Source: Promethearchaeia archaeon
GTDB lineage: Archaea; Asgardarchaeota; Lokiarchaeia; Sigyniarchaeales; SOKP01
DNA: 64,000 bases
NCBI GenBank assembly: GCA_029856235.1
Contig: JAHQWP010000193.1
Coordinates: forward strand, 9,646 to 73,645
Direction of reading: 5' to 3'
Shown here: positions 6,255 through 28,325 of the stretch, one piece after another
Position numbering within the stretch: position 1 is the first letter of the stretch
Layout: every line of letters begins with the position of its first letter
Position numbers and translations under genes: made by a program
The notes under the pieces: model-generated
Told to the model about the DNA's origin: nothing
Databases searched by the model: none
Seen by the model: only the letters and a program-made list of their open reading frames with translations

Positions 6255-7670
6255 TTACCGCTCCTTAGGAGGAAATAACTCATAATTACCTTTGTTAAAC
6301 TTTAAAAAACCTATGGAAAAGAGTTCGGGTACTAATCTTACTAAATCTTGATGTGTAGTATGATGACTTGACTTGTCTGGAAAAACCCATAAATTTTCAA
6401 TATTATTATCACTACGATCATAATTGATGTGATGAACGGGACATTCAGGTCTTAAATATTTTCCACTCTTCATACAAATTCTTGAAATTTCTGATTCTGG
6501 ATGATTTGCAAGATATTGCTCTACCACATAACGGTGTAACTTCATTCTGTTTCCTTCAAAAGCAAATGGATGATCCTTATCAGAAATTCTAACTGTCGAA
6601 ATTATTGTCTTTCTAGGAATAAATGATTTTTTTAGCTTATGTTTACTAAATTTCCAATCTCTTATCGTAGTTAGTTTTTCTTCACATAATTGAGCGATGT
6701 CTTTTTCTCGAAGGTGAAATCTTTTATCGGTGATGATGCGTTCAAACCATTGTTTGTGCGTATATAATGGGTTGTCTTTAGAACAATCGCTATAAGGATC
6801 AAGAGTGACTACAATATCGGGAGTATATTGATTCGATCCCTTTCCTTTGAAACTTACAGTCCAATCTTGAGAAATGTTATTCCATTCAATTTTTTTTATT
6901 GTTTCTTTGATGTTTTCGAGTTTTTTGTAATAATCTATTGATTCTAGCTCAAGAATATTTTTTATATCACCATAATTTAAAGATCTATAGTCAATATTTT
7001 TGTTTAGAAAGTAATGACCCTGAGAAAATGTTATTTGTCTCATTTTAATTAGTTTTTCAAAACATAGGTTTAAGCTAGCTTCTCCTTTTTGATGCTCGGA
7101 TTTACTACCATAAATCCATAAATTCTCGTATCTATTATCTCGTTTATCAAAATTAATATGATGGATCTCGATGCCTTTTTTTAGTCTTCCTTGTCTTAGA
7201 TATTTATTTGCCCAAATATGATTGGAGTTTTTTCTTAAGAATTCTAAAATAACTTCTTGATGTTCTCTCCTTATATCAAGTATTTTTGAACGAGAAGGTT
7301 TATATTTACTTGGTTTAGTAATCATATATCTATCTATATTAAACTTTTTCCTTGATCTCTGAATAGCACCTTTATCGATATTACATATTTTACCAATAAT
7401 TCTATTACTCAATCTTTTACCATTGTTCAAGGATGCGTCATTGCATACTCTGATTATCCACTCTCTATGTCTATATAAAGGATTCACCTTCGAACAAGGA
7501 AGCTTGGGATCAACTTTAATTGACACAGTCCGATACTTTCTAAGTACTGGTATGTATTGCTGTTCTGTGATTTCCCAAACAATTGAATCATCCCAATTGT
7601 AATTCAGAATTTTTTTTGAAATCTCATCAAAATGATTTTCTGGTAAGAAGATATCACTTTTCTCTGACAT
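6255..7670 (-). CDS. Tandem-duplicated HNH endonuclease-like protein (two HNH modules)
   Basis: There are two collinear halves. Each has NPLY(R/T)H(R/K)(E/Q)W, a basic HTH-like stretch, then an HNH-type motif: IEIHHINFDKRDNRYENLWIYGSKSEH in one and PVHHINYDRSDNNIENLWVFPDKSSHH in the other. Confidence 0.7.
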   Translation of the reverse strand: MSEKSDIFLPENHFDEISKKILNYNWDDSIVWEITEQQYIPVLRKYRTVSIKVDPKLPCSKVNPLYRHREWIIRVCNDASLNNGKRLSNRIIGKICNIDKGAIQRSRKKFNIDRYMITKPSKYKPSRSKILDIRREHQEVILEFLRKNSNHIWANKYLRQGRLKKGIEIHHINFDKRDNRYENLWIYGSKSEHQKGEASLNLCFEKLIKMRQITFSQGHYFLNKNIDYRSLNYGDIKNILELESIDYYKKLENIKETIKKIEWNNISQDWTVSFKGKGSNQYTPDIVVTLDPYSDCSKDNPLYTHKQWFERIITDKRFHLREKDIAQLCEEKLTTIRDWKFSKHKLKKSFIPRKTIISTVRISDKDHPFAFEGNRMKLHRYVVEQYLANHPESEISRICMKSGKYLRPECPVHHINYDRSDNNIENLWVFPDKSSHHTTHQDLVRLVPELFSIGFLKFNKGNYELFPPKER

Positions 7671-7921
7671 ATAATCCTAATGAATGTCTAAATATTTAAA
7701 TGAAAGGGGTGAATCAAAATGCTAAGAATTATAATTAATCAAATCTTGTTTGTATTTGAAAAATCAAGCTATGTTGCTTTCTATGGGATTGGACATCAAA
7801 ACAGCATTAAGAAGATATAATATCCAATAGAAAAATAAGATAAAGACAGCTATGAGAAAAACAAGATCCCAGCTCAACTACTACGATATTTTAACAGCTT
7901 TCAAATTCTGATTATATTGTA

Positions 7922-16278: not shown

Positions 16279-16429
16279 TCACCTTCTTCTTCTCTCTCAA
16301 ATTTAATTCTCAATTATAATTATCTTGAGTAATATAATATCTATTATCTATAGGGAATATAAAGATTATACTGAAATTAAGTAGTAAATCCTTATTTTTA
16401 CCGGCAGTTTTAAAACAAAAAATAATTAT

Positions 16430-16612
16430 AAATTACTTGGTTAATACCCATCTACTTTTACTATAGTACCACCCTCAGTATACTAGAGAACGAGTTCTCC
16501 GTATCTGGATTGACAGATATTAACAATCTTTTGCCCTCGATGCTTCTTTAATGCTCTTGAGAAACTTTACAAGAAAAATCTATATAGCTACTTTAATTCT
16601 TAAATAAGTCAT
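16430..16612 (+). pseudogene. Degenerate partial copy of the small zinc-ribbon gene at 20829..21050 (left arm of the direct repeat flanking the rSAM cassette)
   Basis: Identical runs are shared with 20772-21060, for example AAATTACTTGGTTAATACCCATCTA (16430-16454 = 20772-20796) and CACCCTCAGTATAC (16470-16483 = 20904-20917). Translated fragments HPQYTRERVLRIW and CPRCFFNALEKLYKKNLYSYFNS parallel HPQYTKERALLIW and CPKCFINAPEKPYKKNRYSYFNS. The start codon and first CxxC are deleted, and there are internal stops. Confidence 0.7.
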
Positions 16613-16944
16613 TAATGGATGAGTTGGGATAAATAGATCTCTAGAAAAAATATTATTTAATGTGATAGGAATTACTGCTTAAATTAATAATACTATGCAT
16701 CTGATATGGCTTTAATTGCTATCCTATTTTAAAATTAAATATTAAAAAAAAAAGAAATTATTTAATTATCATAATCGTGTGATCCATTGCTAGAGTGGCC
16801 TATTGATTATTGAATCTTCTTAGTGTTATCCAAAAATGTTAAATAACAACTCAGCTTATTTTAAAACATCCAATTTTCTAAAATATTTCGAAGTTTATAT
16901 CTGTACTTAAATAAACATAAAAAATTTGAATCCAAATCTAAAAT

Positions 16945-18048
16945 ATGCCAAGCTTAACCTCTTTAATATCTAAGATGATTAAACCAAGTTGCGCTGTATG
17001 GGAAATTACTCTAAAGTGTAATAGCAACTGCATTCATTGTGGTTCAAAAGCTGGGAAAGTTCGGCATGATGAATTAAGTACTGAAGAATCATTAAACTTA
17101 GTTAGGGATATCCGTGATTGTGGTTATAAGGGAATCGCTTTAATGGGAGGAGAACCATTAGTTAGAGACGATTGGTATGAAATCGCACGGGAGATTAAAA
17201 AAAATAAACTTGATTTATCGATTGTTACTAATGGATTAAATCTGATTGATAACCTTCAAAAGTTAAAAAGCTTAAAAGCTGACTGTGTCTCGCTAAGTTT
17301 GGATGGAGGGACAGCTAAAGTTCACGATTACCTTAGAGGAATTTCAGGAGCATTCGAAAAAACATTAAATGCGATTAACAGATTAAAAGAGGAAAAATTA
17401 CCTGTCAGCGTTATTACAACTGTAAGTAAAACGAATTTAAATGAACTAGATAAAATAAAAAAACTGTTATTAGATAGAGAGATTGCCTGGCAAATTCAGA
17501 TTGCACTTCCTATTGGACGTTTTCCAAGAGAATTGACTATATCCAGAGAAGAGTTTTACACTGTAGCGTTATTCATTGCTATAAATGTTAAAAAATATTC
17601 TTATAAAAGATTGCCAGTTATTGGTGCTCACTGTTTCGGTCATTTTTCAAGGTTCATACCTAATCTAGGGTTGGATCCATGGATTGGATGCCAAGCAGGA
17701 ATATCTGTTTTAGGAATTCAGAGTAATGGGAACATTAAGGGATGTTTAACGCTCCCCGATGAATTTATCGAAGGCAATATTAGAACGCAGAGATTGAAGA
17801 CGATTCTGGAAAAATTAAGGTTAAAACAAATACAGGTAAAAGGCTATTGCACAGATTGTGATTTGACAAATTCATGTCGGGGAGGATGTTTGGGAACAGC
17901 TTATGCATTAAAAGAATTTGAAGAGCCTTATTGCTTAAGAGCAATAGAAAATAAAATGTTTTCATCGAAACAATTCCCAATGAAAGGAAAATTGGATTCA
18001 ACTATTTCGTCCTTAAGGAATATGTTTCATACCTTAATATTCAAATAA
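16945..18048 (+). CDS. Radical SAM / SPASM-domain peptide-maturase-like enzyme
   Basis: CNSNCIHC (CX3CX2C) lies near the N-terminus, with the GGEP motif (MGGEPL). The C-terminal Cys-rich SPASM-like region reads GCQAG...GNIKGC...CTDCDLTNSCRGGCLG. Confidence 0.85.
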   Translation: MPSLTSLISKMIKPSCAVWEITLKCNSNCIHCGSKAGKVRHDELSTEESLNLVRDIRDCGYKGIALMGGEPLVRDDWYEIAREIKKNKLDLSIVTNGLNLIDNLQKLKSLKADCVSLSLDGGTAKVHDYLRGISGAFEKTLNAINRLKEEKLPVSVITTVSKTNLNELDKIKKLLLDREIAWQIQIALPIGRFPRELTISREEFYTVALFIAINVKKYSYKRLPVIGAHCFGHFSRFIPNLGLDPWIGCQAGISVLGIQSNGNIKGCLTLPDEFIEGNIRTQRLKTILEKLRLKQIQVKGYCTDCDLTNSCRGGCLGTAYALKEFEEPYCLRAIENKMFSSKQFPMKGKLDSTISSLRNMFHTLIFK

Positions 18049-18082
18049 ACCGAAAATAAACGTTAATGGAGGTAGCTTAAAA

Positions 18083-18334
18083 ATGATAGACAATCTTTTT
18101 CAATTGGTTAAAATAGGTAAAGAATTAGGATTAAGTAAAAAAGAAATTACTAAAGTATTACTATTTAACAATACTAAGAACCCGATACTATATACGATCT
18201 TAATGATAATAGCAATTATCTTTTCAGGGATAATCATTATTTTTTTAGCAATTGTAGTCTCAAGAAATATCTATCCCGCTGGAACATTATATTCTACGGT
18301 AAAAACAAAGGATTTCAAAGCTAAAAAAAAATAG
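18083..18334 (+). CDS. Small membrane-tethered peptide A (precursor-like; conserved C-terminal YPAGTLYSTVKTKDF motif)
   Basis: GGAGG lies 10 nt upstream of the ATG. The 83-aa product has an N-terminal IGKELGLSKKEIT, one TM helix, then NIYPAGTLYSTVKTKDFKAKKK. It is a paralog of 19836..20105. Confidence 0.6.
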   Translation: MIDNLFQLVKIGKELGLSKKEITKVLLFNNTKNPILYTILMIIAIIFSGIIIIFLAIVVSRNIYPAGTLYSTVKTKDFKAKKK

Positions 18335-18371
18335 AATGGCAAATTTCAAATAAGGAGAGTTTATTTAGAAA

Positions 18372-18500
18372 TTGAAAAGATTAGCTAGTTTAACTGCGAT
18401 ACCAAATTCACCATATGTTCCATCAAATAATACCTACCAAACAGGAACTCTATATTCTACTGTCAGAATAAAAGATTTTGATAAAAAAAATGAAGCTTAA
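18372..18500 (+). CDS. Cryptic short ORF B (not in the ORF track) carrying a third copy of the GTLYSTV(K/R)xKDF motif
   Basis: It starts at TTG 18372, with AAGGAGAG about 14 nt upstream. The translation is (M)KRLASLTAIPNSPYVPSNNTYQTGTLYSTVRIKDFDKKNEA-stop. It overlaps the methyltransferase ATG at 18490. Confidence 0.4.
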   Translation: MKRLASLTAIPNSPYVPSNNTYQTGTLYSTVRIKDFDKKNEA

Positions 18501-19809
18501 TATTGGTTGCGGAAAAAAATACGAACCGGAATATTGTAATATTGATCTATACGAAGAATTAGTGGCTGATAGACTAATGTCAGCTTTTAACCTTGAAATT
18601 AATGACAATACCTGCGAGGAAATTAAAGCGATTCATATAATTGAACACTTGAGTTTTTTTGAAACTATTTACGCTCTTAGTGAATTTTTTAGAGTATTAG
18701 AACCTGATGGAAAATTAATCCTTGAAACTCCTGATCTCGAGAAAGGTTGTCAACATTATTTAAAAGCAGACGCAGAACAAAAAAAAGAAATATTAGGATG
18801 GTTTTTTGGAATTCCTCATAAAGGTCTGCAACATAAACTATGTTTTCCCCCTTTCCTCTTAATCGAACTATTAGAAAATACAGGATTTGACAATATCTCG
18901 AACTTGGTTTTTTACAACGATGAGTCTATTCCCTCAGTTAGGTTTATATGCTGTAAAAGTGGGAATAGTGATGGAATTGGGGTATTTCAAGTCATTTCTA
19001 AACTCCGTAAGGAGCTACTCTTAAGCAACCAAATTGATTTTGCTGATTCCTTCTTACTTAAAGAGCAAGAAGATTTAGTAGCTTTCATAGCTTTAAATCT
19101 ACTTGAGTTTAAAAAAACCAAAAAAAAAAAGTTAATTCAGGATTTATTTGTCGAATTGCTGTTTAAGTGGCCTGGAATCGTTAAAACATTATTAATGGTT
19201 GTAGAGAATGAGAATTTTATCTCTCAGGTTTACAAATTAAACATTAAAGAAATATCAGAGCTTTTAACTAAGTATAAAATTGTGAATATACTTTTTAATT
19301 CGATAACTGAAGCTGCTACAAATCCCGGAACGCAAAGAATTATCTATTTCTCAGTTGAATCGTTTGCCAGGAAATTAATAGAAAACCTACTAAATTCCAA
19401 GGAAGATCGAGAAAAGTTGATAGAGAAACTTGAAACTCTGAATAAATCCTCTAAAGATATAAGTAATAAAATATTCTCAGCTGTTTTAATTGAAAGAGAA
19501 GCTTTAAACTTATTTTATCTAGGAATTAAATCATTTCATCAAGAGAATTATACTCAGGCTCATAATTTATTTTTAAGAGCAATTAAACTCAACCGTGATA
19601 ATTATTTATTTTTTTGGAATTTAAGTAAAACTCTAGCAAGGCTAAAATCTTACATTCAAGCGGAAAAAGTTTATAAGAAGACATTGCGTCTAATAAAAAT
19701 AACCAATGTTAAAAATAAACATGAATTAAAATCGCAAATCCAATATGAATACGATTGGATTAAGAAAAAGAAAGGAAATAAACCCAAGTTCGGTCCGATA
19801 ATAGTGTAA
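18490..19809 (+). CDS. Class I SAM-dependent methyltransferase fused to a helical/TPR-like C-terminal domain
   Basis: MKLNIGCGKKYEPEYCNIDL, IHIIEHL and LEPDGKLILETPD are Methyltransf_11/23-like. The C-terminal ~250 aa is helical with TPR-like repeats (NYTQAHNLFLRAIKLNRDNYLFFWNLSKTLARL). I prefer ATG 18490 over TTG 18478. Confidence 0.75.
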   Translation: MKLNIGCGKKYEPEYCNIDLYEELVADRLMSAFNLEINDNTCEEIKAIHIIEHLSFFETIYALSEFFRVLEPDGKLILETPDLEKGCQHYLKADAEQKKEILGWFFGIPHKGLQHKLCFPPFLLIELLENTGFDNISNLVFYNDESIPSVRFICCKSGNSDGIGVFQVISKLRKELLLSNQIDFADSFLLKEQEDLVAFIALNLLEFKKTKKKKLIQDLFVELLFKWPGIVKTLLMVVENENFISQVYKLNIKEISELLTKYKIVNILFNSITEAATNPGTQRIIYFSVESFARKLIENLLNSKEDREKLIEKLETLNKSSKDISNKIFSAVLIEREALNLFYLGIKSFHQENYTQAHNLFLRAIKLNRDNYLFFWNLSKTLARLKSYIQAEKVYKKTLRLIKITNVKNKHELKSQIQYEYDWIKKKKGNKPKFGPIIV

Positions 19810-19835
19810 AGATATATTAAATTAAGGGAAGTAAT

Positions 19836-20105
19836 ATGATTGCTGATATATTGAAATTTTATGAAGTAGGAAAAGAATTAGGATTAACAAAGAAAGAAAT
19901 AACTCAGATAATGATTTTTGATAATAGCAAATATGCTTATTTATGGAGATTTCTGCTAATTATCTTCATGCTCCTAATTATGATTGGATGGTTTAACTCA
20001 TTAGTTTTCTTAACTCAAAAAATTAACGAAAATGTTTACCCTGCTGGTACGATGTACTCTACGGTAAAACTTAAAGATTTTAATAAGAAATTTAAAGCTA
20101 GTTAG
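19836..20105 (+). CDS. Small membrane-tethered peptide C (precursor-like; conserved C-terminal YPAGTMYSTVKLKDF motif)
   Basis: The 89-aa product has an N-terminal VGKELGLTKKEIT, one TM helix, then NVYPAGTMYSTVKLKDFNKKFKAS. It is a full-length paralog of 18083..18334. Confidence 0.6.
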   Translation: MIADILKFYEVGKELGLTKKEITQIMIFDNSKYAYLWRFLLIIFMLLIMIGWFNSLVFLTQKINENVYPAGTMYSTVKLKDFNKKFKAS

Positions 20106-20123
20106 AGAGATGCAGGTGAAAAC

Positions 20124-20729
20124 ATGATTGAGAAAATTAGAATTATCGTAAAGAATAAAATAGCAATATTGCCAATACTAGGGGCAGTTCTAATAATAAT
20201 CTCGCTTTTTACACCATTCGCAATTTCTATGGGATTGGAAGGAATTTCCGTCTCAAGTCAATCTAATGTGTGGTATTGGGGATTTTATGAGGGGCAAAAC
20301 CAAATTCTTCTTCTCAATATACCCTTTATGCTAAATATACTCCTACCTATGACCACGTTTGTATGTGCAATTTTGATACTAATACTTTCTATTGAATTTG
20401 GTTTAAATGAAATAAATAGAAAATTATTTGGTGAATTATTGTTCATTTTTATTGTTTTAATTTATCTCTCCATGACTTTAACAGTAAAATTAATAGAATA
20501 CTCGTTTTCTCTCATGCCAGATTTAGAACCTGTCTTAATGACGGGCGCTCCTTTTTGGCATTATCGAATAGCTGGTTTTGGCCCTTTTGGAATAAATATA
20601 GCGATCTTCTTAGTTATAGTAGGAAGTTTAATATCGTTATTAGAGTCAAGAAAAAGTTTTTTCTATATTGAAATAACGGTTATTGTAATTTGGATAATTA
20701 TCCTCCTAGCTTTCTCTCCTCTCATTTAA
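20124..20729 (+). CDS. Polytopic membrane protein of the rSAM cassette (unknown function)
   Basis: It is 201 aa with several hydrophobic helices. AGGTGA lies upstream. It sits 18 nt after peptide C. I recognise no family. Confidence 0.5.
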   Translation: MIEKIRIIVKNKIAILPILGAVLIIISLFTPFAISMGLEGISVSSQSNVWYWGFYEGQNQILLLNIPFMLNILLPMTTFVCAILILILSIEFGLNEINRKLFGELLFIFIVLIYLSMTLTVKLIEYSFSLMPDLEPVLMTGAPFWHYRIAGFGPFGINIAIFLVIVGSLISLLESRKSFFYIEITVIVIWIIILLAFSPLI

Positions 20730-20828
20730 AATAGCAATGGTAAAAAGAGAATTTTTTAATCACGAATTCATAAATTACTTGGTTAATACCCATCTATTTT
20801 TAATATAGATCGTTTAAGAACTACAAGT

Positions 20829-21050
20829 ATGGCTCTTTTATCTTCAGAACGAAATTGTGCTGATTGTAGAAAAAGCATCTCGTTTGACGAGTTTTTGACG
20901 AATCACCCTCAGTATACAAAAGAACGAGCCCTTCTTATCTGGAATGACAAAATTCTTACGATTTTATGTCCCAAATGTTTCATTAATGCTCCTGAGAAAC
21001 CCTACAAAAAAAATCGATATAGCTACTTCAATTCATACTTTAGACATTGA
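20829..21050 (+). CDS. Small zinc-ribbon protein (CxxC...CxxC)
   Basis: It is 73 aa with CADC and CPKC pairs. It lies inside the right arm of the direct repeat. Confidence 0.5.
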   Translation: MALLSSERNCADCRKSISFDEFLTNHPQYTKERALLIWNDKILTILCPKCFINAPEKPYKKNRYSYFNSYFRH

Positions 21051-21183
21051 TGGATGAATTTTTTAAGGATTCTAGCTCATTGATTAGAAGCTGACGATTT
21101 CGCAAAATCAAGAATAAAAATCTATCAAATCTATTTATAAGACTAGATTTCCTTATTAGTACTTGGGGTTTGTAATCGTTAAA

Positions 21184-21714
21184 ATGTCGAGTTTTAAGTT
21201 AAAAGTTTTACTTACGGGAGCTGCCGCTGTTGGAAAAAAGAGACTTGTTCAGAGGTTTATCAAAAATCGATTTGCTGAAAACTACAAGCTCACCGTTGGA
21301 GTAGACATTCTCACCAAAGATGTAGAATATAAACCGGGCGAAGTAGCAACTCTCTCTATATGGGACATAGGCGGTCAACAAAGGTTCGAATTCATCCGAT
21401 CGACATTTTACAAAGGAGCTGCTGGCGTTTTGTTAGTCTTTGACTTAACAAGGGAGCAAACTTTCGTTGAATCAAAGAAGTGGCTTACAGAAACCCGGCA
21501 ATTTAGCAATGAGAACATTCCATTTGTATTGATTGGAAATAATGTAGATCTCCTCGAAGATGTTGGAGAAGTTATTGATCGAGAAGAAGCGCGAGCTTTT
21601 GCTGAAAAAGAAGGCGGTATTTACATTGAAACTTCAATTAAAACAGGGGCCAATGTAGATGAAGCCTTTAATGAACTCACACGTAGAATAATCGAATCAA
21701 GACATAGTAATTAA
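21184..21714 (+). CDS. Ras/Rab-like small GTPase with non-canonical G1 and G4 motifs
   Basis: G1 is GAAAVGKK and G2 is LTVGVD. G3 is WDIGGQ, G4 is GNNVD and G5 is ETSIKTG. Order and spacing are typical of Ras-superfamily proteins. I prefer ATG 21184 over TTG 21163. Confidence 0.85.
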   Translation: MSSFKLKVLLTGAAAVGKKRLVQRFIKNRFAENYKLTVGVDILTKDVEYKPGEVATLSIWDIGGQQRFEFIRSTFYKGAAGVLLVFDLTREQTFVESKKWLTETRQFSNENIPFVLIGNNVDLLEDVGEVIDREEARAFAEKEGGIYIETSIKTGANVDEAFNELTRRIIESRHSN

Positions 21715-21776: not shown

Positions 21777-22871
21777 TCAAGGTAATGAGGGATAATCAGT
21801 GTAACCCTTCTCACCAGGAGTGTAAAAAGTGTGCTTATCCCATCTTGCTATTTCACCATCAAGTTCAAAGCGTTTTGGGAGATCGGGATTAGATATAAAA
21901 AGCTTCCCAAACGCCACGAGATCGGCGAGATTCTCCTGCAGAAATCTATTCCCTTTTTCTTGGGTAAATTCGCTATTTATCATTAGAGTCCCTTTATATA
22001 ACGGTCTAAAATGTTTCGCGATATTAGGTTCCGCAAAGGGTACGTTAGTTACATCTGTGAATGGTTCGGATAGATGCAAATATGCTAAGTCGTAATTGTT
22101 CAGTCTTTCTACTATATATTCGAATGTAGGAATAGTCTCCTCGTCAACTGTAATTCCAAATATATCGTGAAACGAAGGATTTAGCCTCGTTCCAATGCGA
22201 TTCTCCGGCACTACTTCCTTTATTGCATCAATGACCTCGAATAGAAATCTGGCTCGATTTTCAATTGATCCACCATACTCGTCTGTTCTGTTGTTAGAAC
22301 ATCGTGTAAAAAATTGATGGAATAAATACCCGTTTGAGGAGTGAATCTCTACTCCGTCAAATCCCGCCTTCATAGCATTACTAGCAGCATTCTTGAAATC
22401 TTGAACAGTTTGTTTAATATCAGCGATATCCATCGCTTTAGGAGTAACAGTATCTTTAAACCCTTCGTAAGTGAATGATTTCGATTTAGGATTTATTGCA
22501 GATGGAGCCAGTGGTAGTTCGCCATTGTGGAGATCTGGATGCGACATTCTTCCAACGTGCCACAATTGGATAAATATTTTTCCTTCTCTTTTATGAACAG
22601 CGTTGGTTACTAACTTCCATCCTTCGACTTGGGCCTCTGAATAGATCCCAGGGGTGTGAATGTAACCGACGGCATCTTTCGAGACTTGGGATCCACAGGT
22701 GATAATCAGCCCCGCAGACGATCTCTGCCCATAATGTTTAGCTTGAAGCTCAGTGGGGCGATTCTCTGGATTATTAGCCCTATTCCGAGTCATAGGAGCC
22801 ATTACCATTCTATTTTTTAGGTGTAAATCTCCTATCGTTATTTCTTTTAAAAGAGGTTGCACTCTAGACAT
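21777..22871 (-). CDS. Old Yellow Enzyme family NADH:flavin oxidoreductase (alkene reductase)
   Basis: NRMVMAPMTR, QLWHVGR, GFDGVEIHSSNGYLFHQF and RTDEYGGS are classic OYE motifs. Confidence 0.85.
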   Translation of the reverse strand: MSRVQPLLKEITIGDLHLKNRMVMAPMTRNRANNPENRPTELQAKHYGQRSSAGLIITCGSQVSKDAVGYIHTPGIYSEAQVEGWKLVTNAVHKREGKIFIQLWHVGRMSHPDLHNGELPLAPSAINPKSKSFTYEGFKDTVTPKAMDIADIKQTVQDFKNAASNAMKAGFDGVEIHSSNGYLFHQFFTRCSNNRTDEYGGSIENRARFLFEVIDAIKEVVPENRIGTRLNPSFHDIFGITVDEETIPTFEYIVERLNNYDLAYLHLSEPFTDVTNVPFAEPNIAKHFRPLYKGTLMINSEFTQEKGNRFLQENLADLVAFGKLFISNPDLPKRFELDGEIARWDKHTFYTPGEKGYTDYPSLP

Positions 22872-23007
22872 ATCTAATCGTTTTGATTATAATGTGTTAA
22901 TTAAATTTTTATATAATGAGCAATATTTAACGCTATTCAGTATAATCTATAATTATGAAAAATTAATTGAATAATCTTTCTCATATCGAAAAAATAGGTG
23001 TATAATT

Positions 23008-25398
23008 ATGCAAACAAGTGAGTCAATTGATCCGTTTTTTACCGAGCCATATGTGGATATCGATGAGTGGCGGGACGATCCTGTACGCCATCGATACATC
23101 CATGGCGGTTTTAAAGGCACCGATGCCAGATTTTCGTTCTATTTCCCACCGAAGGAGCAATACGAAGGCCGGTTCTTCCAGTATATCATGCCAATGTCTG
23201 GGAATGAAAACCTTGTACAGAATCCAAGTTATCCTGATCCTCCCTACGCATTAGATTTTGTCTTCGAGAGTGGCGGTTATTTTGTGGAATCAAACCTAGG
23301 GAGGTTGGACATGTTCCCAGGGGATGATCCCACCATCGCCGGATATAGAACCAGTGCGGCAGTGGCGAAATATTCGCGCGTTTTGGCCTCTGAAATGTAT
23401 AGTCCCCACCGCTCCTATGGTTATGCTTTTGGCGGTAGCGGCGGAGGATATAAGACAATGAGTTGTATAGAAAACACAACCGGTATCTGGGACGGTGTGG
23501 TGCCATTTATTCACGCAACACCAATGGCCATGATCAATGTATTTTCGGTACAGGCTCATGCAATGCGCGTGTTGAATGATAAAATGCCCGCCATCATCGA
23601 TGCAGTAGAACCTGGTGGTAGCGGAGATATGTATGCTAATCTAAATGAAGAAGAACGAGAAGCGCTTACCGAAGTGACTAAGATGGGATTTCCGCCACGA
23701 GCTTGGTTCAATTACAGGAGAATAGCGTTCGGTTACACCGGAGTCTTAACTACGCTCCTTGACCCAATGATTAAATGGGATCCCACATACTTTGAAGATT
23801 TTTGGAAGGAGCCGGGCTATCTCGGTGCGAACCCGCCCCAATCGCTCTTAGACGCGCGGATAAAACACGAAACAACCATAAGCAAGCTTATTATGCCCGA
23901 AGATATCAGGAAAATGGGAGGGTCATTGTCCATATCTGCGGGGCAAGCTGGTAACGTAGTCCCAGCAGGGTTTGAATTAGAAAGCGTGCCTGAAGGTGAC
24001 ATACAGGGGGCCTCAATATACTTGAAAAACGGCAAAGCAGAGGGTTGCGTGGTTTACGCTGTTGCAGCGTTCGATAACATGGTAATGTTAGCCTATGGCG
24101 AAGAAAACTACCAGTTTCTATCAAGTGTCAAGGTGGGTGACAAAGTGCAGATCGACAATTCTAATTATCTCGCTACTCAAACCTATCATCGACATCAGGT
24201 TCCGGCACCGGAATACTATGTCTGGGACCAGTTCCGGGGCGCTGATGGTAAACCGTTGTATCCGCAACGACCCGAGATAATAGGCCCGCTTCATGCGTAT
24301 CAGGGCGCTGGTTCGGTCCAGACTGGCAAGTTTGAGGGCAAGATGATTGTAGTAGAAATGTTAATGGACGAGGCAGCTTATCCTTGGCAAGCCGACTGGT
24401 ATCGCTCGAAAGTAAAAGCCGCATTGGGAGAGAAATTCGATGATAACTATCGGCTCTGGTTCATTGACAATGCAATGCATACTCCACCAGTGATCTCAGC
24501 GTTAGACTCCCATCCAGCAATAACCACGCGAGTTATTCACTATGGTGGTGTGTTGCAGCAAGCACTGCGTGACGTGAGCGCATGGGTTGAAAAAGGCGTG
24601 GCACCCCCAGCAAGTACTACATATAAAGTAGTAGATGGCCAAGTGGAAGTACCTCCCACTGCTGCGGAGCGTAAAGGTATTCAACCAGTGGTCACTCTTG
24701 CAGTAAATGGAAGCGATCGTGCAGATGTCAAGTTCGGGAAGAAACTTAAGTTTTCCGCGGTGATTGAAACACCCCCGGATACTGGTTCGGTAGTTAGCGT
24801 TGAATGGGATTTTGAGGGCAATGGTGATTATCCAATAACTGAGCAACTCAAAGATAGCAAGAGTAAAACTGTGAAGGTGAAAACCACTTATACTTTCGCC
24901 GAGAACGGCATGTACTTTCCTGCAGTGCGTGTATCTTCGCAGAGGGAAGGCAACGCTCAAACACCCCACACAAGAATCCAGAACATCGCTCGCGTGAGGG
25001 TTGTAGTCAGCGGTAAAGAACAACAAGTACCTGAAACTAAGCAATTAATATTTGAATTAAAAGAGAAACGAGCCGATTTGGGAAACATAATTAACAAGTT
25101 CTTTGATACAGTTGGACAACATACTACGGTAGCTCAGGGAAAAGAGTTATCAACCAATGAGATTGGCCCAAGAACTGAACGTTCTACAAGATTCGAAGTT
25201 GTTCCTTCTCCTGGGACAACTTTTTATACGATAAGTTTTGAAGATATAGATTCAGGTATTGGCGTCTTTATTGAAATAGAAATGGAAGTCACAGGATCCT
25301 ATAAAATGATGGCAAAAACCATAAAAAAAGTGTTCTCAAAAAGCATTATAGAAAATGCTACAGAAACTCTCAATAAAATTTTAAAAGAAACGGAGTGA
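23008..25398 (+). CDS. Multidomain serine-hydrolase-like protein (alpha/beta-hydrolase, tannase/feruloyl-esterase-like) with a PKD-like domain and an AT-rich C-terminal extension
   Basis: FGGSGGGYK contains a GxSxG nucleophile elbow. The C-terminal third has a PKD-like VSVEWDFEGNGDY. The gene body at 23040-25020 is markedly GC-rich, while the first ~11 and last ~120 codons have the local AT-rich composition. Confidence 0.55.
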   Translation: MQTSESIDPFFTEPYVDIDEWRDDPVRHRYIHGGFKGTDARFSFYFPPKEQYEGRFFQYIMPMSGNENLVQNPSYPDPPYALDFVFESGGYFVESNLGRLDMFPGDDPTIAGYRTSAAVAKYSRVLASEMYSPHRSYGYAFGGSGGGYKTMSCIENTTGIWDGVVPFIHATPMAMINVFSVQAHAMRVLNDKMPAIIDAVEPGGSGDMYANLNEEEREALTEVTKMGFPPRAWFNYRRIAFGYTGVLTTLLDPMIKWDPTYFEDFWKEPGYLGANPPQSLLDARIKHETTISKLIMPEDIRKMGGSLSISAGQAGNVVPAGFELESVPEGDIQGASIYLKNGKAEGCVVYAVAAFDNMVMLAYGEENYQFLSSVKVGDKVQIDNSNYLATQTYHRHQVPAPEYYVWDQFRGADGKPLYPQRPEIIGPLHAYQGAGSVQTGKFEGKMIVVEMLMDEAAYPWQADWYRSKVKAALGEKFDDNYRLWFIDNAMHTPPVISALDSHPAITTRVIHYGGVLQQALRDVSAWVEKGVAPPASTTYKVVDGQVEVPPTAAERKGIQPVVTLAVNGSDRADVKFGKKLKFSAVIETPPDTGSVVSVEWDFEGNGDYPITEQLKDSKSKTVKVKTTYTFAENGMYFPAVRVSSQREGNAQTPHTRIQNIARVRVVVSGKEQQVPETKQLIFELKEKRADLGNIINKFFDTVGQHTTVAQGKELSTNEIGPRTERSTRFEVVPSPGTTFYTISFEDIDSGIGVFIEIEMEVTGSYKMMAKTIKKVFSKSIIENATETLNKILKETE

Positions 25399-25509
25399 TT
25401 TCCTTTTTTTTATTTCTTTTAGAATGAATAATTACCTTTTCTTATGTTCTTTATAATTTTTACAGATAGGCATATAAAAAACCTGACTGGTATACAATTT
25501 ATATGCTTT

Positions 25510-25534
25510 TTGCGAAGAGAATAACTCTTCGCAA
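25510..25534. terminator. Perfect 10-bp hairpin between convergent genes
   Basis: TTGCGAAGAG-aataa-CTCTTCGCAA lies between the stops of 23008..25398 (+) and 25677..26864 (-). A T-tract (TTTTTTTTATTTCTTTT) directly follows the plus-strand stop. Confidence 0.3.
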
Positions 25535-25676
25535 TACCAATCGCGGTATCTATCATTCTTTCCTGAGATTTATGGCATCGCTAAACATTAATGAATTGAG
25601 CTATTCAAAAATATATTTCTATCAAGTAAAATTACAGCCAAAAAAAGGAAAAATATATAAAAAAAAATAGAAAGTT

Positions 25677-26864
25677 TTAATCTCGTTGACCTAATATGGT
25701 CGTGGAACAAACGCTAAACGCACCGCCGAGGTTATGAGCCAAACCAATCTTGGCATCGGGTACTTGTCTCCCTTCAGCGCGTCCTTGAACTTGTTTGGCA
25801 ATCTCTGTTAGCATCCTGCAACCCGTACTTCCAATAGGATGACCAAAGCTTTTTAATCCTCCAGATGGGTTTACAGCAGTTTCTCCATCCCAATTGAACG
25901 TACCATTTTTAAGCTCTTCAGCTGCTTGACCCCTATCACAGAATTGTAAATCCTGACAATTTATTAATTCAGTGATCGTAAAACAGTCGTGAACTTCTGC
26001 GGCGTCAATTTCTTTTCGGGGATTGGTAATTCCCGCTTCTTTATAGGCATACTGCGCTGCTTTTATGGTCGAAGGGAACGCTGTAAAGTCTGCTCCGGGT
26101 CCTCCTTGAGGAATGTACCAAGGAAAATTGGTTTGGGCCGAAATCGCGTTGGCTTTAACTAATACATAATCATCTGCATGAGCGTAAGACTCTGCGAGTT
26201 CTGGTGTTGTAAGGATCAACGCAGCTGCTCCGTCCGACATCGCGCAACAATCGAAGCGACCAAGGGGATCAGCAATCATAGGAGCTTTCATCGCAGCCTC
26301 AATTGTAATCGGGCTTCGAAAGTGTGCTTTTGGATGATGAGAGCCGTTCTCGTGATTTTTTACGGCAACTCGAGCAAGATCCTCTTTTGTCCAACCAAAT
26401 TCGTGGAAGCACCTAGTTGCTGCCATCGAAAACATTGCGGGTGCGGAAGGTGTTGGGTACAATGGATGTCCAAATTGTCTGAATCCCGGTAGGCCACTAC
26501 CACCTTCGTCCATGAGTTTCTCCACTCCACAGGCGAGAGCAATATCATATGCGCCAGAGGCAATAGCGAAAGAAGCGTTACGGAACGCGTCCATACCCGA
26601 AGCGCAATAATTTTCCACTCGAGTGGCAGGTTTCCCATCCATTTTAAGGATATCTTCTACCATTGAACCGGAAAGTCCAGTAAAATAGTAAAATATCCCA
26701 ATCCAGCTCGCATCTACCTCGTCCTTGGTGATTCCGGCGTCTTTTAAAGCGCTTTGGAACGCTTCGAAAAGCAGGTCGTATTGCGACTTGTCCCATAGTT
26801 CTCCATATTTTGTCATATCGCAACCGATAATCGCGACTTTGTCTTTAATACCATGTCTTGTCAT
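25677..26864 (-). CDS. Thiolase (SCP-x / archaeal acetoacetyl-CoA thiolase type)
   Basis: The nucleophile motif is VENYCASGMDA. The C-terminal motifs are GGLKSFGHPIGSTGCRM and GLAHNLGG. It is 395 aa. Confidence 0.85.
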   Translation of the reverse strand: MTRHGIKDKVAIIGCDMTKYGELWDKSQYDLLFEAFQSALKDAGITKDEVDASWIGIFYYFTGLSGSMVEDILKMDGKPATRVENYCASGMDAFRNASFAIASGAYDIALACGVEKLMDEGGSGLPGFRQFGHPLYPTPSAPAMFSMAATRCFHEFGWTKEDLARVAVKNHENGSHHPKAHFRSPITIEAAMKAPMIADPLGRFDCCAMSDGAAALILTTPELAESYAHADDYVLVKANAISAQTNFPWYIPQGGPGADFTAFPSTIKAAQYAYKEAGITNPRKEIDAAEVHDCFTITELINCQDLQFCDRGQAAEELKNGTFNWDGETAVNPSGGLKSFGHPIGSTGCRMLTEIAKQVQGRAEGRQVPDAKIGLAHNLGGAFSVCSTTILGQRD

Positions 26865-26879
26865 TTTGCATTACCTCCT

Positions 26880-28325
26880 TTAAGGTCTCCCCCTCACGGG
26901 TCGACATTTCCAATAATAATTTTTAAATTCAGCACCTTCGTGTTCTTTTCGGAAGGTCAGCTCGAGTTTCATCCCAATTTTGACGTTTTCTTCGGGATTT
27001 TCAATTTCAGTCATATTGACGAGCACTCTACCACCACCATCGAGGTCTATTACGCATCGAGGGACGGGTGTGTTGAGATATGCTCCACCAACTAAGTGAT
27101 CGAGGGTATATGTAAAGAGTTCTCCGGTCTTTGCGAGTTTCACGGGTTCCAGTTGATCATCAGCTCTACAGACGCAACAAGCCCTTGCAAGGTCTGGATA
27201 TTGCACGGCTCCGCAATTCTTGCATTTCACACCATACCACTTATAAACTGAGGGAGTATCACGCCAAATTAAGACAGCTGAGCTTTTACGTGTATATCTG
27301 TCCTTTTTGAGTAATTCTTTAGCATCGATGACGCTATTATAATTCTTTAGAAGAGCCATCGATTTTTGGTGACCAATAAATCCCATTCTTCCTTTACCAA
27401 TAGCTTTAACACCATCTTTATCTCGAACTTGCATTAGAATTGCATCAGCACCATCTCCAAACCCAGCCATGATGATTTTGGCATCTAGTTTGGGCCTTCG
27501 TAAGCTGGCAATGAGGAGCATAAAGGGCATTGGTGTCCCCGTATCTCCTATTTGAAAGAATAGGCTATTTTGTGCAACTCCTTGGCCAAACTTCATTATT
27601 TTAGAGATTCTGCTGTGCATTCGAGGGTTATTATAGTAATAAGCTGCAATATCGATGTCTTCAGTAGGATTTAAATTATTACGTTTCAATATTTCACCCA
27701 TTACTTTGGTGATGCTTTCCACGTAAAACTTTGCGTCCATTTTAACTTCAAAAGTTCTGATAAAGTCGTCCTTATCTGCTCTTTTCCACGGTCCAGTCAC
27801 ATTCGCTGAGACGGAATAATAATCATCAATTGAAATTGGAATATTTTCTTCGTCCGCAACGAGTATGGCAGCAGCACCATCTGCAAATCCAAATTCCCAC
27901 ATAGTTGAGGGTTCTGGTTTTCTAGTATCAGCTGCAACTACCAAGATACTATTGATATCTTTGTTAGCCTTGATCGTATCAACAGCTCTAGTTAAGGCTG
28001 ATGTGCCTGCTTTAGTAGAGTCTGTGAAATCTGCGGTAATGATGTCCTCTCTCATATCGAGTACGGTAGCGATTAATGACGCTGAATCCTTTTCGGTATA
28101 GACCTGTGTTGTTGAAGCAAAGAAGATTCCATCAACCGTTTTTGGGTCAATTCCCGCCAAGCAATCAAGTCCGGCTTCTACGGACATTGTCAAGCTGTCC
28201 TCATCTATCATTGCTACTGCTTTAGTCCCAGGAACTGAAGGAAAATCCCATGCTTTCGAAATAAGTTCTCGGGGTAGCATGTATTTAGGTAAATACGCAC
28301 CATAACTTTTAATACCAATTGGCAT
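26880..28325 (-). CDS. HMG-CoA-synthase-like domain (catalytic residues apparently substituted) fused to a DUF35 zinc-ribbon/OB-fold domain
   Basis: The N-terminal ~345 aa are collinear with archaeal HMGCS (IGIKSYGAYLPKY, DEDSLTM, ILVVAADT, GFADGAAAILV). At the Glu/Cys/His positions I read ASTTQ, DSTKAGT and YYNNPRM. The C-terminal ~130 aa are DUF35: CKNCGAVQYP...CCVCRADD, then an OB-fold (GELFTYT..., VKIGMKLELTF). It ends 15 nt upstream of the thiolase gene. Confidence 0.75.
   Translation of the reverse strand: MPIGIKSYGAYLPKYMLPRELISKAWDFPSVPGTKAVAMIDEDSLTMSVEAGLDCLAGIDPKTVDGIFFASTTQVYTEKDSASLIATVLDMREDIITADFTDSTKAGTSALTRAVDTIKANKDINSILVVAADTRKPEPSTMWEFGFADGAAAILVADEENIPISIDDYYSVSANVTGPWKRADKDDFIRTFEVKMDAKFYVESITKVMGEILKRNNLNPTEDIDIAAYYYNNPRMHSRISKIMKFGQGVAQNSLFFQIGDTGTPMPFMLLIASLRRPKLDAKIIMAGFGDGADAILMQVRDKDGVKAIGKGRMGFIGHQKSMALLKNYNSVIDAKELLKKDRYTRKSSAVLIWRDTPSVYKWYGVKCKNCGAVQYPDLARACCVCRADDQLEPVKLAKTGELFTYTLDHLVGGAYLNTPVPRCVIDLDGGGRVLVNMTEIENPEENVKIGMKLELTFRKEHEGAEFKNYYWKCRPVRGRP

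Follow-up and report, generated by a model that had tools for sequence, protein, structure and literature searches.

The question raised by the cassette at 16945-20729 (+ strand) of the window, the whole 64-kb stretch of Asgard archaeal DNA analysed here, is what its radical SAM enzyme does to the small proteins encoded beside it. The cassette is real, and all six co-directional ORFs listed in the preliminary description were found. These encode, all on the + strand, an rSAM/SPASM enzyme (16945..18048, 367 aa), a small membrane protein or first precursor paralog (18083..18334, 83 aa), a 42-aa ORF with a TTG start (18372..18500), a class I SAM-dependent methyltransferase-TPR protein (18490..19809, 439 aa), a second small membrane protein or precursor paralog (19836..20105, 89 aa) and a polytopic membrane protein without recognisable family (20124..20729, 201 aa).

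The motif GT[LM]YSTV[KR].KDF, scanned with up to three substitutions in the six frames of the whole window, gave exactly three matches, all of them inside the 83-aa, 42-aa and 89-aa ORFs, and the N-terminal GKELGL[ST]KKEIT of the two longer ORFs occurs exactly twice; both shared segments had been described before, and no other copies exist in the window. The three core copies are only 68-73% identical in DNA, yet 15-16 of the 17 residues are kept, which indicates selection on the peptide and no recent DNA duplication. In the 83-aa protein, whose start codon is preceded by a GGAGGT box 10 nt upstream, a leader-like N-terminus GKELGLSKKEIT (18116-18151) is followed by one hydrophobic helix, the core NIYPAGTLYSTVKTKDF (18266-18316) and a Lys tail. 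In the 89-aa protein the leader GKELGLTKKEIT (19869-19904) and the core NVYPAGTMYSTVKLKDF (20031-20081) stand on either side of one hydrophobic helix. Homologs of the former form 87 clusters of about 82-88 aa and those of the latter 55 clusters (70-99% identity, almost all 89 aa), and none of the NCBIfam peptide models matches these small proteins.

The 42-aa ORF keeps the core only (NTYQTGTLYSTVRIKDF, 18429-18479) and shares 11 nt with the start of the methyltransferase gene. Window positions 18040-18380 and 18380-18478 align with 92-95% identity to 7096-7436 and 7586-7684 of the related locus L014, so that, compared with L014 7428-7700, the window lacks about 150 bp that specify the leader and the TM helix in a 90-aa paralog. 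Full-length counterparts of 87-90 aa are present at L011 7424-7687 and L014 7428-7700. Judged from this alignment, the ORF is a 5'-truncated deletion remnant of a full-length paralog; of the three precursor-like ORFs proposed earlier, the 83-aa and 89-aa ones stand and the third is no intact precursor. One further small-protein paralog of the relatives is absent from the window.

The methyltransferase ORF would encode 443 aa if read from the TTG at 18478. Its start is almost certainly the ATG at 18490 (MKLNIGCG, 439 aa), since the protein read from there is equal in length and 100% identical to the database protein P0143. A class I SAM-dependent domain (about residues 1-160) is fused to an all-helical TPR-like repeat domain of roughly 280 residues; Pfam gives TPR_2 at 28.5 bits (cutoff 27) with weak Methyltransf_23 and Methyltransf_11 matches, and the AF2 model has a pLDDT of 88.6. 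Foldseek searches of the PDB returned generic SAM-methyltransferase folds only, the best being 2p8j (E 3.9e-5). The RiPP tailoring methyltransferase LahSB (6uak) is found at rank 28 (E 1.9e-3) and shares the class I fold and the RiPP-type cluster, but the fold likeness is generic, the helical domain is an addition, and in the present gene set the methyltransferase is a core and not an optional member. The residues KLN[IL]GCG...IEHL...RVLxPxG...ETPD are kept from Loki-type through bacterial homologs, and the gene co-occurs with the rSAM gene in Asgard archaea, Thermoplasmatota and three bacterial loci; from this distribution the protein appears to be an obligatory partner of the rSAM branch to which the window enzyme belongs.

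A genome scan with the rSAM retrieved about 35 Promethearchaeota loci (58-91% identity), and all of those with enough downstream sequence have one to five small-protein genes and a methyltransferase-TPR gene within about 3 kb. The same triad exists in Thorarchaeota (L040-43), in Thermoplasmatota (L044-46, 50, 55, 59), where the cassettes have two rSAM paralogs with TIGR03913 as best HMM (216-233 bits), and in bacteria, namely Elusimicrobiota (L053), Patescibacteria (L056) and a Pseudomonadota MAG (L071). Its flanking genes differ between phyla. Within a Loki-type clade the cassette lies in the chromosome at roughly syntenic positions and is nearly universal, not sporadic. When contexts were retrieved through small-protein identity, 13 of 13 lay inside an rSAM/MT cassette, and small-protein homologs lacking an rSAM neighbour, which by the preliminary description would have refuted its reading if widespread, were not encountered in these contexts. 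The RiPP-like logic that it had recognised (a maturase, several precursor-like genes and a tailoring methyltransferase) is thus upheld by strong, conserved co-occurrence over archaeal phyla and some bacteria. The small proteins are strong candidates for the substrates of the rSAM and very probably undergo a modification made by it. On balance, we regard the cassette as a chromosomal operon whose products modify small proteins post-translationally and which is conserved among Asgard archaea of Lokiarchaeota type.

The core of the small proteins follows the pattern Y-x-x-G-x-X-Y-(S/G/A)-T-V..DF, in which X is the most variable position. Across 83 Loki-type cores no or almost no variation is seen at Y(-6), G(-3), Y(0), S(+1), D(+7) and F(+8). 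Entropy peaks at X(-1) with 2.40 bits (L39, K11, R11, F8, Y5, E4, M2, G2, I1), and this residue differs among paralogs within one cassette. The core has no Cys, hence it is no sacti- or ranthipeptide, as already pointed out. Conservation of the N-terminal segment and of the hydrophobic helix equals that of the core, and since the TM helix is kept in the Asgard homologs, the membrane-tethered product hinted at earlier is plausible; charge bias gave no direction for the topology, both helix flanks being positive. The Thermoplasmatota homologs are soluble peptides of 57-77 aa that share the LGL leader and have Y..G..YGT[VI]S..DF in their C-terminal part, some with two or three tandem cores (L049 5600-5857; P0306, P0308), and P0307 has three leader-core modules.

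The rSAM has the CNSNCIHC motif at residues 25-32, eight Cys in its C-terminal third and Pfam matches to Radical_SAM (4.6e-27) and SPASM (1.8e-5); its CxxxCxxC begins at residue 25, and an RRE domain is lacking at the N-terminus. The top NCBIfam match is TIGR04103, the tyramine-excising spliceases (198 bits against a cutoff of 725), followed by TIGR03913, the GDL motif peptide-associated radical SAM/SPASM maturases (166 against 592), AhbD (162 against 500) and TIGR04133 (154). TIGR03913 is the sister family of TIGR04103, cyanobacterial spliceases scoring 415 bits on it, but both the window enzyme and the Thermoplasmatota paralogs fall far under its cutoff in the comparison by HMM score. Cyanobacterial homologs with about 36% identity to the window enzyme pass TIGR04103 (833 against 725 bits) and adjoin Nif11 precursors with xYG sites, as in classical spliceotide clusters (PMC11414181, PMC11002830). 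In a neighbour-joining tree of rSAMs chosen by similarity to the query, with other SPASM families left out, the window enzyme falls inside the MT-associated clade; the adjoining clades are melainabacterial, with neighbouring peptides that carry xYG(V), and the cyanobacterial spliceases lie further out. The enzyme would thus stand on a deep branch, archaeal for the most part, with the tyramine-excising spliceases (PlpX family) as its most likely closest characterised relatives.

The comparison with spliceotide systems (the tyramine spliceases PlpX/PcpX with PlpY, and the binary RhaX/RhaA, RcsX and RasX) adds several likenesses to this kinship. Several precursor genes adjoin the enzyme, cores are repeated in homologs, and the core X-Y-(S/G/A), an invariant Tyr between a variable and a small residue, mirrors the spliceotide XYG site. 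Moreover, a Y protein is lacking and the leader is helical, as in the binary systems, which use a leader helix (PMC11414181). Differences from spliceotides are the X-Y-S site, the low family score, an enzyme length about 50 residues below that of the cyanobacterial ones, precursors in which a TM helix separates leader from core and the leader is not of Nif11/NHLP type, the obligatory methyltransferase-TPR partner, the archaeal hosts (Asgard, Thermoplasmatota) and a cassette without exporter or peptidase. We somewhat favour the view that this is a spliceotide-type system in a new archaeal variant, anchored in the membrane and coupled to a methyltransferase; to our knowledge nobody has characterised such a splicease-like archaeal variant. 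The novelty proposed earlier would accordingly hold for a divergent variant and not for a wholly new class, the system most likely belonging to the known spliceotide-type superfamily as one of its divergent branches. The sequences point moderately to splicing chemistry, and we place tyramine splicing itself slightly below an even chance.

In such a system the substrates, namely the 83-aa and 89-aa proteins in the window and as many as five such proteins per cassette in relatives, would be recognised through the N-terminal helical segment hydrophobic-x-x-L-x-K-I-G-K-E-L-G-L-S-K-K-E-I, anchored by their single hydrophobic helix and modified in the cytoplasm on the C-terminal core N-x-Y-P-x-G-x-X-Y-S-T-V-K-x-K-D-F. 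The most likely reaction would be of splicease type at the invariant second Tyr, the putative site reading X-Y-S in the window, whereas Thor, Thermoplasmatota and bacterial homologs have X-Y-G or X-Y-A there. For the methyltransferase and the biological function we offer weak suggestions: the former may bind the peptide via its helical repeat domain and methylate some site on it. As product one would expect a membrane-tethered protein with an electrophilic ketoamide, which could inhibit proteases with a specificity set by X (L/M, F/Y, K/R or E by paralog); if the ketoamide is made, membrane-tethered protease inhibitors are a plausible guess.

Against splicing it can be said that X-Y-G defines spliceotides, while the canonical Gly is here replaced by Ser, and we know of no splicease acting on Y-S. 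Since the rSAM is far below all curated cutoffs, and other SPASM families are only marginally more remote from it than the spliceases, with AhbD and TIGR04133 scoring close to TIGR04103, another Tyr-directed or different chemistry is possible. The same substrates might undergo a Tyr-centred C-C or C-O crosslink (e.g. of Tyr-6 or Tyr0 with a neighbour), epimerisation or a beta-carbon modification on the conserved core, the product then being capped by the methyltransferase. The invariant Y-6 and Y0 with G-3, D+7 and F+8 exceed the needs of a splice site, the two rSAM paralogs of Thermoplasmatota hint at more than one reaction, and the obligatory methyltransferase, which described spliceotide clusters are not known to have, may be a sign of a different reaction. 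We nevertheless rate such chemistry as rather unlikely: spliceases and their sister family are nearest by HMM score and identity, and a hypervariable residue, an invariant Tyr and a small residue form the exact XYG pattern. The cyclophane crosslinks suggested earlier find no support, the closest curated family and the splice-site-like core pointing elsewhere. Aromatic residues in a conserved core beside an rSAM/SPASM enzyme do recall triceptides (three-residue cyclophanes) and other crosslinking RiPPs, but the core shows X-Y-small with variable X and no aromatic-x-x repeat, the RRE domain is missing, cyclophane-forming rSAMs of triceptide type are absent among the top 25 NCBIfam matches, and of crosslinking enzymes the top matches include only weak WgkB (127 bits) and DynA (79 bits). 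Highly improbable is a cofactor or metabolite enzyme of AhbD/NirJ type with unrelated membrane-protein neighbours. Similar length, an rSAM domain with full SPASM and no RRE, and 130-160 bits on the AhbD and NirJ2 models would agree with it; these scores are far under the family cutoffs of 500-650 bits, no AhbD, NirJ or PqqE cutoff is reached, no heme, siroheme or other cofactor-pathway genes lie near the cassette, the triad is kept across phyla though its flanking genes differ, and the peptides are organised as leader, core and repeated core. By these scores and this gene context, the grouping with cofactor enzymes that would have spoken against a peptide maturase was not found.

A secreted, bacteriocin-like antimicrobial RiPP, with the helix in a cleaved leader or signal, the core released outside and the 201-aa protein serving export or immunity, would fit the precursor paralogs with a variable residue, the operon-end membrane protein of some cassettes, the soluble multi-core peptides of Thermoplasmatota and the Peptidase_M50 gene that lies 3' of the cassette at L071 (Pseudomonadota). 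We consider it improbable, because neither the window nor most archaeal cassettes have a peptidase, ABC transporter or other exporter, a chromosomal cassette in rough synteny is found almost throughout the Loki-type clade, the N-terminal segment and helix are conserved like the core, and many cassettes have no 201-aa protein.

The latter has no Pfam, NCBIfam or PADLOC match, and its single-sequence AF2 model (pLDDT 58.8) is unusable. It had been counted as part of the cassette, but only a subset of Asgard cassettes has one, and by this distribution it is an accessory gene and not a core component. Its homologs lie 3' of the last small gene at L001, L003, L005, L008, L011, L013, L019, L022, L025, L032 and L088-L092.

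Six co-directional ORFs on the forward strand make up the cassette of the window, all of them at the positions given in the preliminary description. These include the gene encoding a radical-SAM/SPASM enzyme (rSAM) of 367 aa (16945-18048; ORF call and Pfam), an 83-aa ORF (18083-18334), a 42-aa ORF with a TTG start (18372-18500), the gene encoding a 439-aa methyltransferase fused to a TPR-like helical domain (MT-TPR), which begins with the ATG at 18490 and has the same length and sequence as database protein P0143, an 89-aa ORF (19836-20105) and a gene encoding a polytopic hydrophobic protein of 201 aa (20124-20729). Since the intergenic gaps are 18-37 nt or negative, the cassette is considered to be one operon. 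Pfam matches were obtained for Radical_SAM (4.6e-27), SPASM (1.8e-5) and TPR_2, together with weak methyltransferase matches, and database cluster mates of the window proteins carry the label "hypothetical protein, Candidatus Lokiarchaeota archaeon". The C-terminal motif GT[LM]YSTV[KR].KDF, described as shared by three ORFs, was found in exactly three copies by a six-frame scan of the 64 kb allowing up to three substitutions, and the N-terminal motif GKELGL[ST]KKEIT occurs exactly twice in the window, again as described. The DNA of the motif copies is just 68-73% identical and the encoded peptide is nearly invariant, which indicates that the repeat is kept at the protein level. The 42-aa ORF, which had been described as one of three small ORFs with the motif, turned out to be a relic: in the close relative L014 a gene for a 90-aa paralog is present, of which the window has lost about 150 bp comprising the leader and the TM helix, and one further paralog is also absent from the window.

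Protein-cluster searches returned 55 clusters for the 89-aa protein and 87 for the 83-aa protein, all metagenomic or from Asgard MAGs and nearly all of 81-94 aa. The search for co-occurrence of motif and rSAM, which had been proposed beforehand, gave a uniform result, as all 13 genomic contexts reached via the small proteins (L001-L007, L088-L093) hold the rSAM cassette, in the order rSAM (367 aa), one to four small genes, MT-TPR (438-447 aa) and one small gene, and usually closed by a membrane protein of about 200 aa. A scan with the rSAM of one genome per prokaryotic species identified about 35 Promethearchaeota loci at 58-91% identity and, further away, loci of Thorarchaeota (47-51%), Thermoplasmatota (44-49%), cyanobacteria (about 36%) and a few Elusimicrobiota, Patescibacteria, Melainabacteria and Proteobacteria (36-46%). 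When all ORFs of these loci were searched with an HMM of the small proteins, and with phmmer for MT-TPR and the membrane protein, all Asgard loci with flanks of sufficient length turned out to carry small-protein genes and MT-TPR beside the rSAM; the triad extends to Thorarchaeota, to most Thermoplasmatota loci and to the three bacterial loci L053, L056 and L071. As had been proposed, the cassette of the window includes the 201-aa membrane protein, which is found solely in a subset of Asgard cassettes, for which reason it is regarded as accessory; its single-sequence AF2 model (pLDDT 58.8, pTM 0.39) is too poor for a fold search. A profile of the Loki-type small proteins retrieved only 51 clusters from 1.84 billion representative proteins. 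The small proteins are therefore a small, lineage-restricted family without a curated model.

Some of the related loci have features of their own. In the metagenomic relative L001 (4632-9124) the cassette adjoins genes for an NB-ARC/STAND ATPase, an LRR-TIR protein and TIR-domain proteins, a defence-island-like neighbourhood. Thermoplasmatota loci L044-L046, L049, L050, L055 and L057 encode two rSAM/SPASM paralogs per cassette (three in L049), usually in tandem and split into two separate clades, along with soluble multi-copy or multi-core peptides; in three of these loci a phenylacetate-CoA-ligase-like AMP-binding gene lies convergently downstream. A high-GC bacterial version of the cassette is found in L071 (2107-9214), from a Pseudomonadota MAG, with two Lys-rich peptides of 54-57 aa ending ...YAPGT(L/Y)YGL..., a 504-aa methyltransferase homolog and two rSAM paralogs. 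This locus also encodes a Peptidase_M50 (site-2 protease family) membrane protein, which could be the processing protease that archaeal cassettes are without.

Across lineages the small proteins conserve an N-terminal part, hydrophobic-x-x-(L/I)-x-x-(I/L)-G-x-x-L-G-L-x-K-K-(E/D)-I, and a C-terminal part, Y-x-x-G-x-X-Y-(S/G/A)-(T/S)-(V/I)-x-x-(K/N)-D-F. A hydrophobic helix separates both parts in the Asgard, Thorarchaeota, Patescibacteria and some Thermoplasmatota homologs; most Thermoplasmatota homologs are without it and consist of leader-core peptides of 57-77 aa that end at or just past DF. Two or three tandem cores are present in L049 (5600-5857) and in the database proteins P0306 and P0308, and P0307 contains three leader+core modules in one protein. 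RiPP precursors are generally expected to be encoded by short genes beside a maturase and to combine a recognition part that is conserved with a core that is conserved or repeated, and all of these were found. The small proteins have the classical architecture of RiPP precursors.

No peptide model of Pfam or NCBIfam matches the small proteins of the window, of Thorarchaeota, of Thermoplasmatota or of bacteria, and the leader gave only weak, noise-level NCBIfam matches (E about 0.1) to the HTH proteins MAD1, HigA and Tfx. The conserved leader segment x-I-G-K-E-L-G-L-S-K-K-E-I-x-K-V-L (window 18092-18166; also P0306 and P0307) resembles the turn and recognition helix of an HTH. The 15 residues flanking the hydrophobic helix carry +2.2 on the N side and +0.8 on the C side, and the whole flanks +3.6 and +4.6, both positive, so that the positive-inside rule favours neither orientation. 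A mid-helix Gly (G49 of the 83-aa protein, 18083-18334) is invariant in a 17-sequence alignment (A3), and the helix may be kinked or re-entrant with both termini in the cytoplasm. Sactipeptides and ranthipeptides are ruled out, as the window small proteins contain no Cys and the core is without Cys donors. Searches of all cassette proteins against Pfam and NCBIfam gave no PqqD-like RiPP recognition element (RRE), peptidase or transporter family.

With Y(0) as the second conserved Tyr, the 83 Loki-type cores show little or no variation at Y(-6), G(-3), Y(0), S(+1), D(+7) and F(+8). Variability is highest at X(-1), directly before Y(0), with an entropy of 2.40 bits (L39, K11, R11, F8, Y5, E4, M2, G2, I1); entropy is almost as high at -4 and +5, yet the substitutions there are conservative. 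Moreover X(-1) differs within single cassettes (for example L/Y/K/R/L in L001 and L/E/L in L005), and in Thorarchaeota cassettes R, L and D precede Y-G or Y-A. Y(0) is followed by Ser in 82 of the 83 Loki-type cores, by Gly (8/11) or Ala (3/11) in Thorarchaeota and by Gly in 15 of 16 cores of Thermoplasmatota and other homologs; the cores of the window read L-Y-S, L-Y-S and M-Y-S, with no X-Y-G. By analogy, a hypervariable X followed by an invariant Tyr and a small residue looks like the pattern of spliceotides, the products of the tyramine-excising splicease (PlpX) family TIGR04103. In spliceotides the X of the splice site turns into a beta-amino acid, and this source of ribosomal beta-amino acids has, to our knowledge, so far been demonstrated in bacteria only. 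The extra invariant core residues suggest additional recognition or a different reaction.

The rSAM carries the cluster motif CNSNCIHC at residues 25-32, matches PF04055 with 95.7 bits (cutoff 29.5) and SPASM PF13186 with 25.4 bits (cutoff 21.5), and has eight Cys at residues ~230-340, among them CTDCDLTNSCRGGC, features that place it in the Radical SAM / SPASM superfamily. It has no N-terminal RRE, the CxxxCxxC starting at residue 25. The best NCBIfam match, to TIGR04103 "nif11-class peptide radical SAM maturase 3", scores 198 bits where the cutoff is 725, and the enzyme thus falls short of membership in the PlpX family, which corresponds to IPR026482 (PMC11002830); TIGR03913 (166 bits) and AhbD (162 bits) come next, far under their cutoffs. 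As controls, the cyanobacterial homologs score 833-835 bits on TIGR04103, above the cutoff, and lie directly downstream of Nif11-leader precursors with xYG cores (QPYGLPP, LLYGVVIS, QLMYGVIR); with a conserved ORF of ~70 aa 3' of the splicease, in the PlpY position, these loci are classical spliceotide clusters. Peptides with xYG or xYA were also found beside the intermediate rSAM homologs of Melainabacteria and Endomicrobia (TTLYGVQDIKDF, VTKYGVYF, EKYGV and, three times, RYAGPPNP) and in the methyltransferase-containing L071 (PPYAPGTLYGLV and TPYAPGTYYGLA). In a neighbour-joining tree the window rSAM falls in a Loki-type clade that is sister to Thorarchaeota; both lie inside a methyltransferase-associated clade with Thermoplasmatota and the three bacterial loci, outside which come Melainabacterial clades and then the cyanobacterial spliceases. 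This rough tree was built without any other SPASM family and is therefore evidence of continuity, not of exclusivity. The closest PDB sequences (SkfB, a cytosylglucuronate decarboxylase and PqqE) share only the rSAM core and are uninformative on chemistry.

A PlpY-like activator was considered, given that the leader IGKELGLS resembles by eye the C-terminus IEKEAGIS of the cyanobacterial ~70-aa ORFs. It was rejected after a leader HMM (--max, 2108 ORFs, L061-L087) missed these ORFs, the best hit being unrelated (E about 1.7). Spliceotide systems of type I obtain their activating helix from a Y protein, those of binary types from the leader of the precursor. No Y-like ORF is present in the window cassette, and the conserved N-terminal segment of the small proteins is a candidate activating helix. 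Nothing points to a known anti-phage defence system: PADLOC gives just a generic likeness of the rSAM to viperins (84 bits) and no match for the 201-aa membrane protein or the four other non-rSAM proteins.

The AF2 model of MT-TPR, built on 35 homologs (pLDDT 88.6), has a class I methyltransferase fold at the N-terminus, for which Foldseek against the PDB returned exclusively generic SAM methyltransferases (best 2p8j, E 3.9e-5), and a C-terminal stack of 13 consecutive helices (residues 162-427), with no beta-strands beyond the methyltransferase domain and hence no winged-helix RRE. The TPR match (PF07719) reaches 28.5 bits (cutoff 27) and the Pfam methyltransferase matches lie below cutoff; the SAM-binding motif LNIGCG is invariant in the 35 homologs and kept in distant ones too. 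By these features the protein is a class I SAM-dependent methyltransferase with a TPR helical repeat. The motifs KLN[IL]GCG, IEHL, RVLxPxG, ETPD and W-I-[YF]-G...G-x-x-H are kept from Loki-type to bacterial homologs, the latter being without most of the helical domain. This protein is probably an active methyltransferase and a core partner of this rSAM branch, with Asp+7, Tyr-6 or a terminus as candidate methylation targets.

The small proteins would be made in the cytoplasm, where the N-terminal helix would recruit the rSAM, possibly via the helical domain of MT-TPR. The rSAM would act on X-Y-S at its invariant Tyr, with tyramine excision of the splicease type as the most likely reaction; MT-TPR would add a methyl group, and the hydrophobic helix would keep the product at the membrane. 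We are confident that the small proteins undergo an rSAM-dependent modification, and the RiPP-like interpretation of the preliminary description is largely right, its main idea being supported by the leader, the core and the repeated cores; the cyclophane formation it had speculated on gives way to splicease-like chemistry as the likely one. That this chemistry is splicing proper has a little less than even odds. Several differences count against it: the window site is Y-S and the defining spliceotide site is Y-G, the rSAM is far short of the TIGR04103 cutoff and only modestly nearer to it than to AhbD, and the obligatory methyltransferase is foreign to the described spliceotide clusters. The main rival keeps the substrates but has the rSAM carry out some other Tyr-directed reaction on them, which we regard as possible rather than probable.

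Ketoamides are known as protease-inhibitor warheads (PMC11626197, PMC9811515). We tentatively suggest that a deep-branching splicease and MT-TPR make electrophilic alpha-keto-beta-amino acid warheads at X-Y-Ser in the C-terminal tails of membrane-anchored proteins, and that the paralogs form a tethered panel of protease inhibitors or regulators differing in P1 (Leu/Met, Phe/Tyr, Lys/Arg, Glu). The system would then serve the cells of Lokiarchaeota-type archaea themselves and would not be a secreted antibiotic. Within this proposal, protease inhibition as the function is a guess of low confidence, and so is the idea that L/M, F/Y, K/R and E at X(-1) give the paralogs differing specificities. 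A secreted bacteriocin-like product is improbable, because most archaeal cassettes are without peptidase or exporter, nearly all members of a Loki-type clade have the cassette, in roughly syntenic position, and the leader and hydrophobic helix are as strongly conserved as the core. A cofactor enzyme with chance neighbours, for which the AhbD match might speak, is essentially excluded: that match (162 bits) and the one to NirJ2 (135 bits) are both below cutoffs of 500, and no tetrapyrrole-pathway genes were found among the cassette neighbours.

If the splicing reading is true, backbone tyramine splicing would reach the Asgard archaea, the closest prokaryotic relatives of eukaryotes, with X-Y-Ser as a new site motif. 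In no earlier case would a spliced product have remained on its membrane anchor or a methyltransferase have been the dedicated partner, and a panel of paralogs that vary at no position but the warhead residue would be a sign of regulated proteolysis at the membrane. Should the chemistry be another one, the rSAM-methyltransferase-peptide triad is still common to Asgard archaea, Thermoplasmatota and a few bacteria. A curated family model for it does not exist, all its genes are annotated as hypothetical and, as there are soluble homologs, the triad offers enzyme discovery a well-defined target. The literature searched on Asgard/Lokiarchaeota RiPPs, radical SAM/SPASM, TIGR04103 and the "GDL motif" holds nothing on this system, a comparison outside which the bioinformatic types of the main splicease survey, Scott et al. 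2022 (Chem), stand. According to PMC11626197, that survey covered archaeal as well as bacterial genomes and found spliceotide clusters in both, so that the methyltransferase-associated clade may already be listed there bioinformatically.

The window has a low G+C of about 33%, in keeping with an Asgard archaeon. Copies of a direct repeat of ~200-290 bp with 79-95% identity lie on both sides of the cassette (16428-16625 and 20770-21060). The downstream copy consists of a 73-aa ORF (20829-21050, forward strand) and 60 bp upstream of it; the upstream copy has a gap of ~92 bp and is a degenerate, start-less duplicate of the 3' half of this ORF. This points to an earlier segmental duplication or rearrangement in the region of the cassette. 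The 73-aa product has a zinc-ribbon-like CxxC...CxxC and no family match, and its gene is also found 3' of the cassette in L003 (8986-9207, E 3e-41) and in no other locus. In relatives the cassette directly follows a Lactamase_B gene; in the window Lar_N and a 3-keto-disaccharide-hydrolase-like gene lie between. Downstream, 21163-21714 (forward strand) encodes a Ras/Rab/Roc-type small GTPase (Pfam Ras 1.2e-45), a type that is a hallmark of Asgard archaea. From 22001 to 28000 the G+C rises to 0.42-0.44, from ~0.29-0.36 elsewhere. The genes of this stretch encode an Old Yellow Enzyme homolog (21777-22871, reverse strand), a protein of 796 aa whose sole match, to tannase/feruloyl-esterase, stays below threshold (23008-25398, forward strand) and, both on the reverse strand, a thiolase (25677-26864) and an ACP_syn_III/OB_ChsH2 protein that is HMG-CoA-synthase-like (26880-28325).
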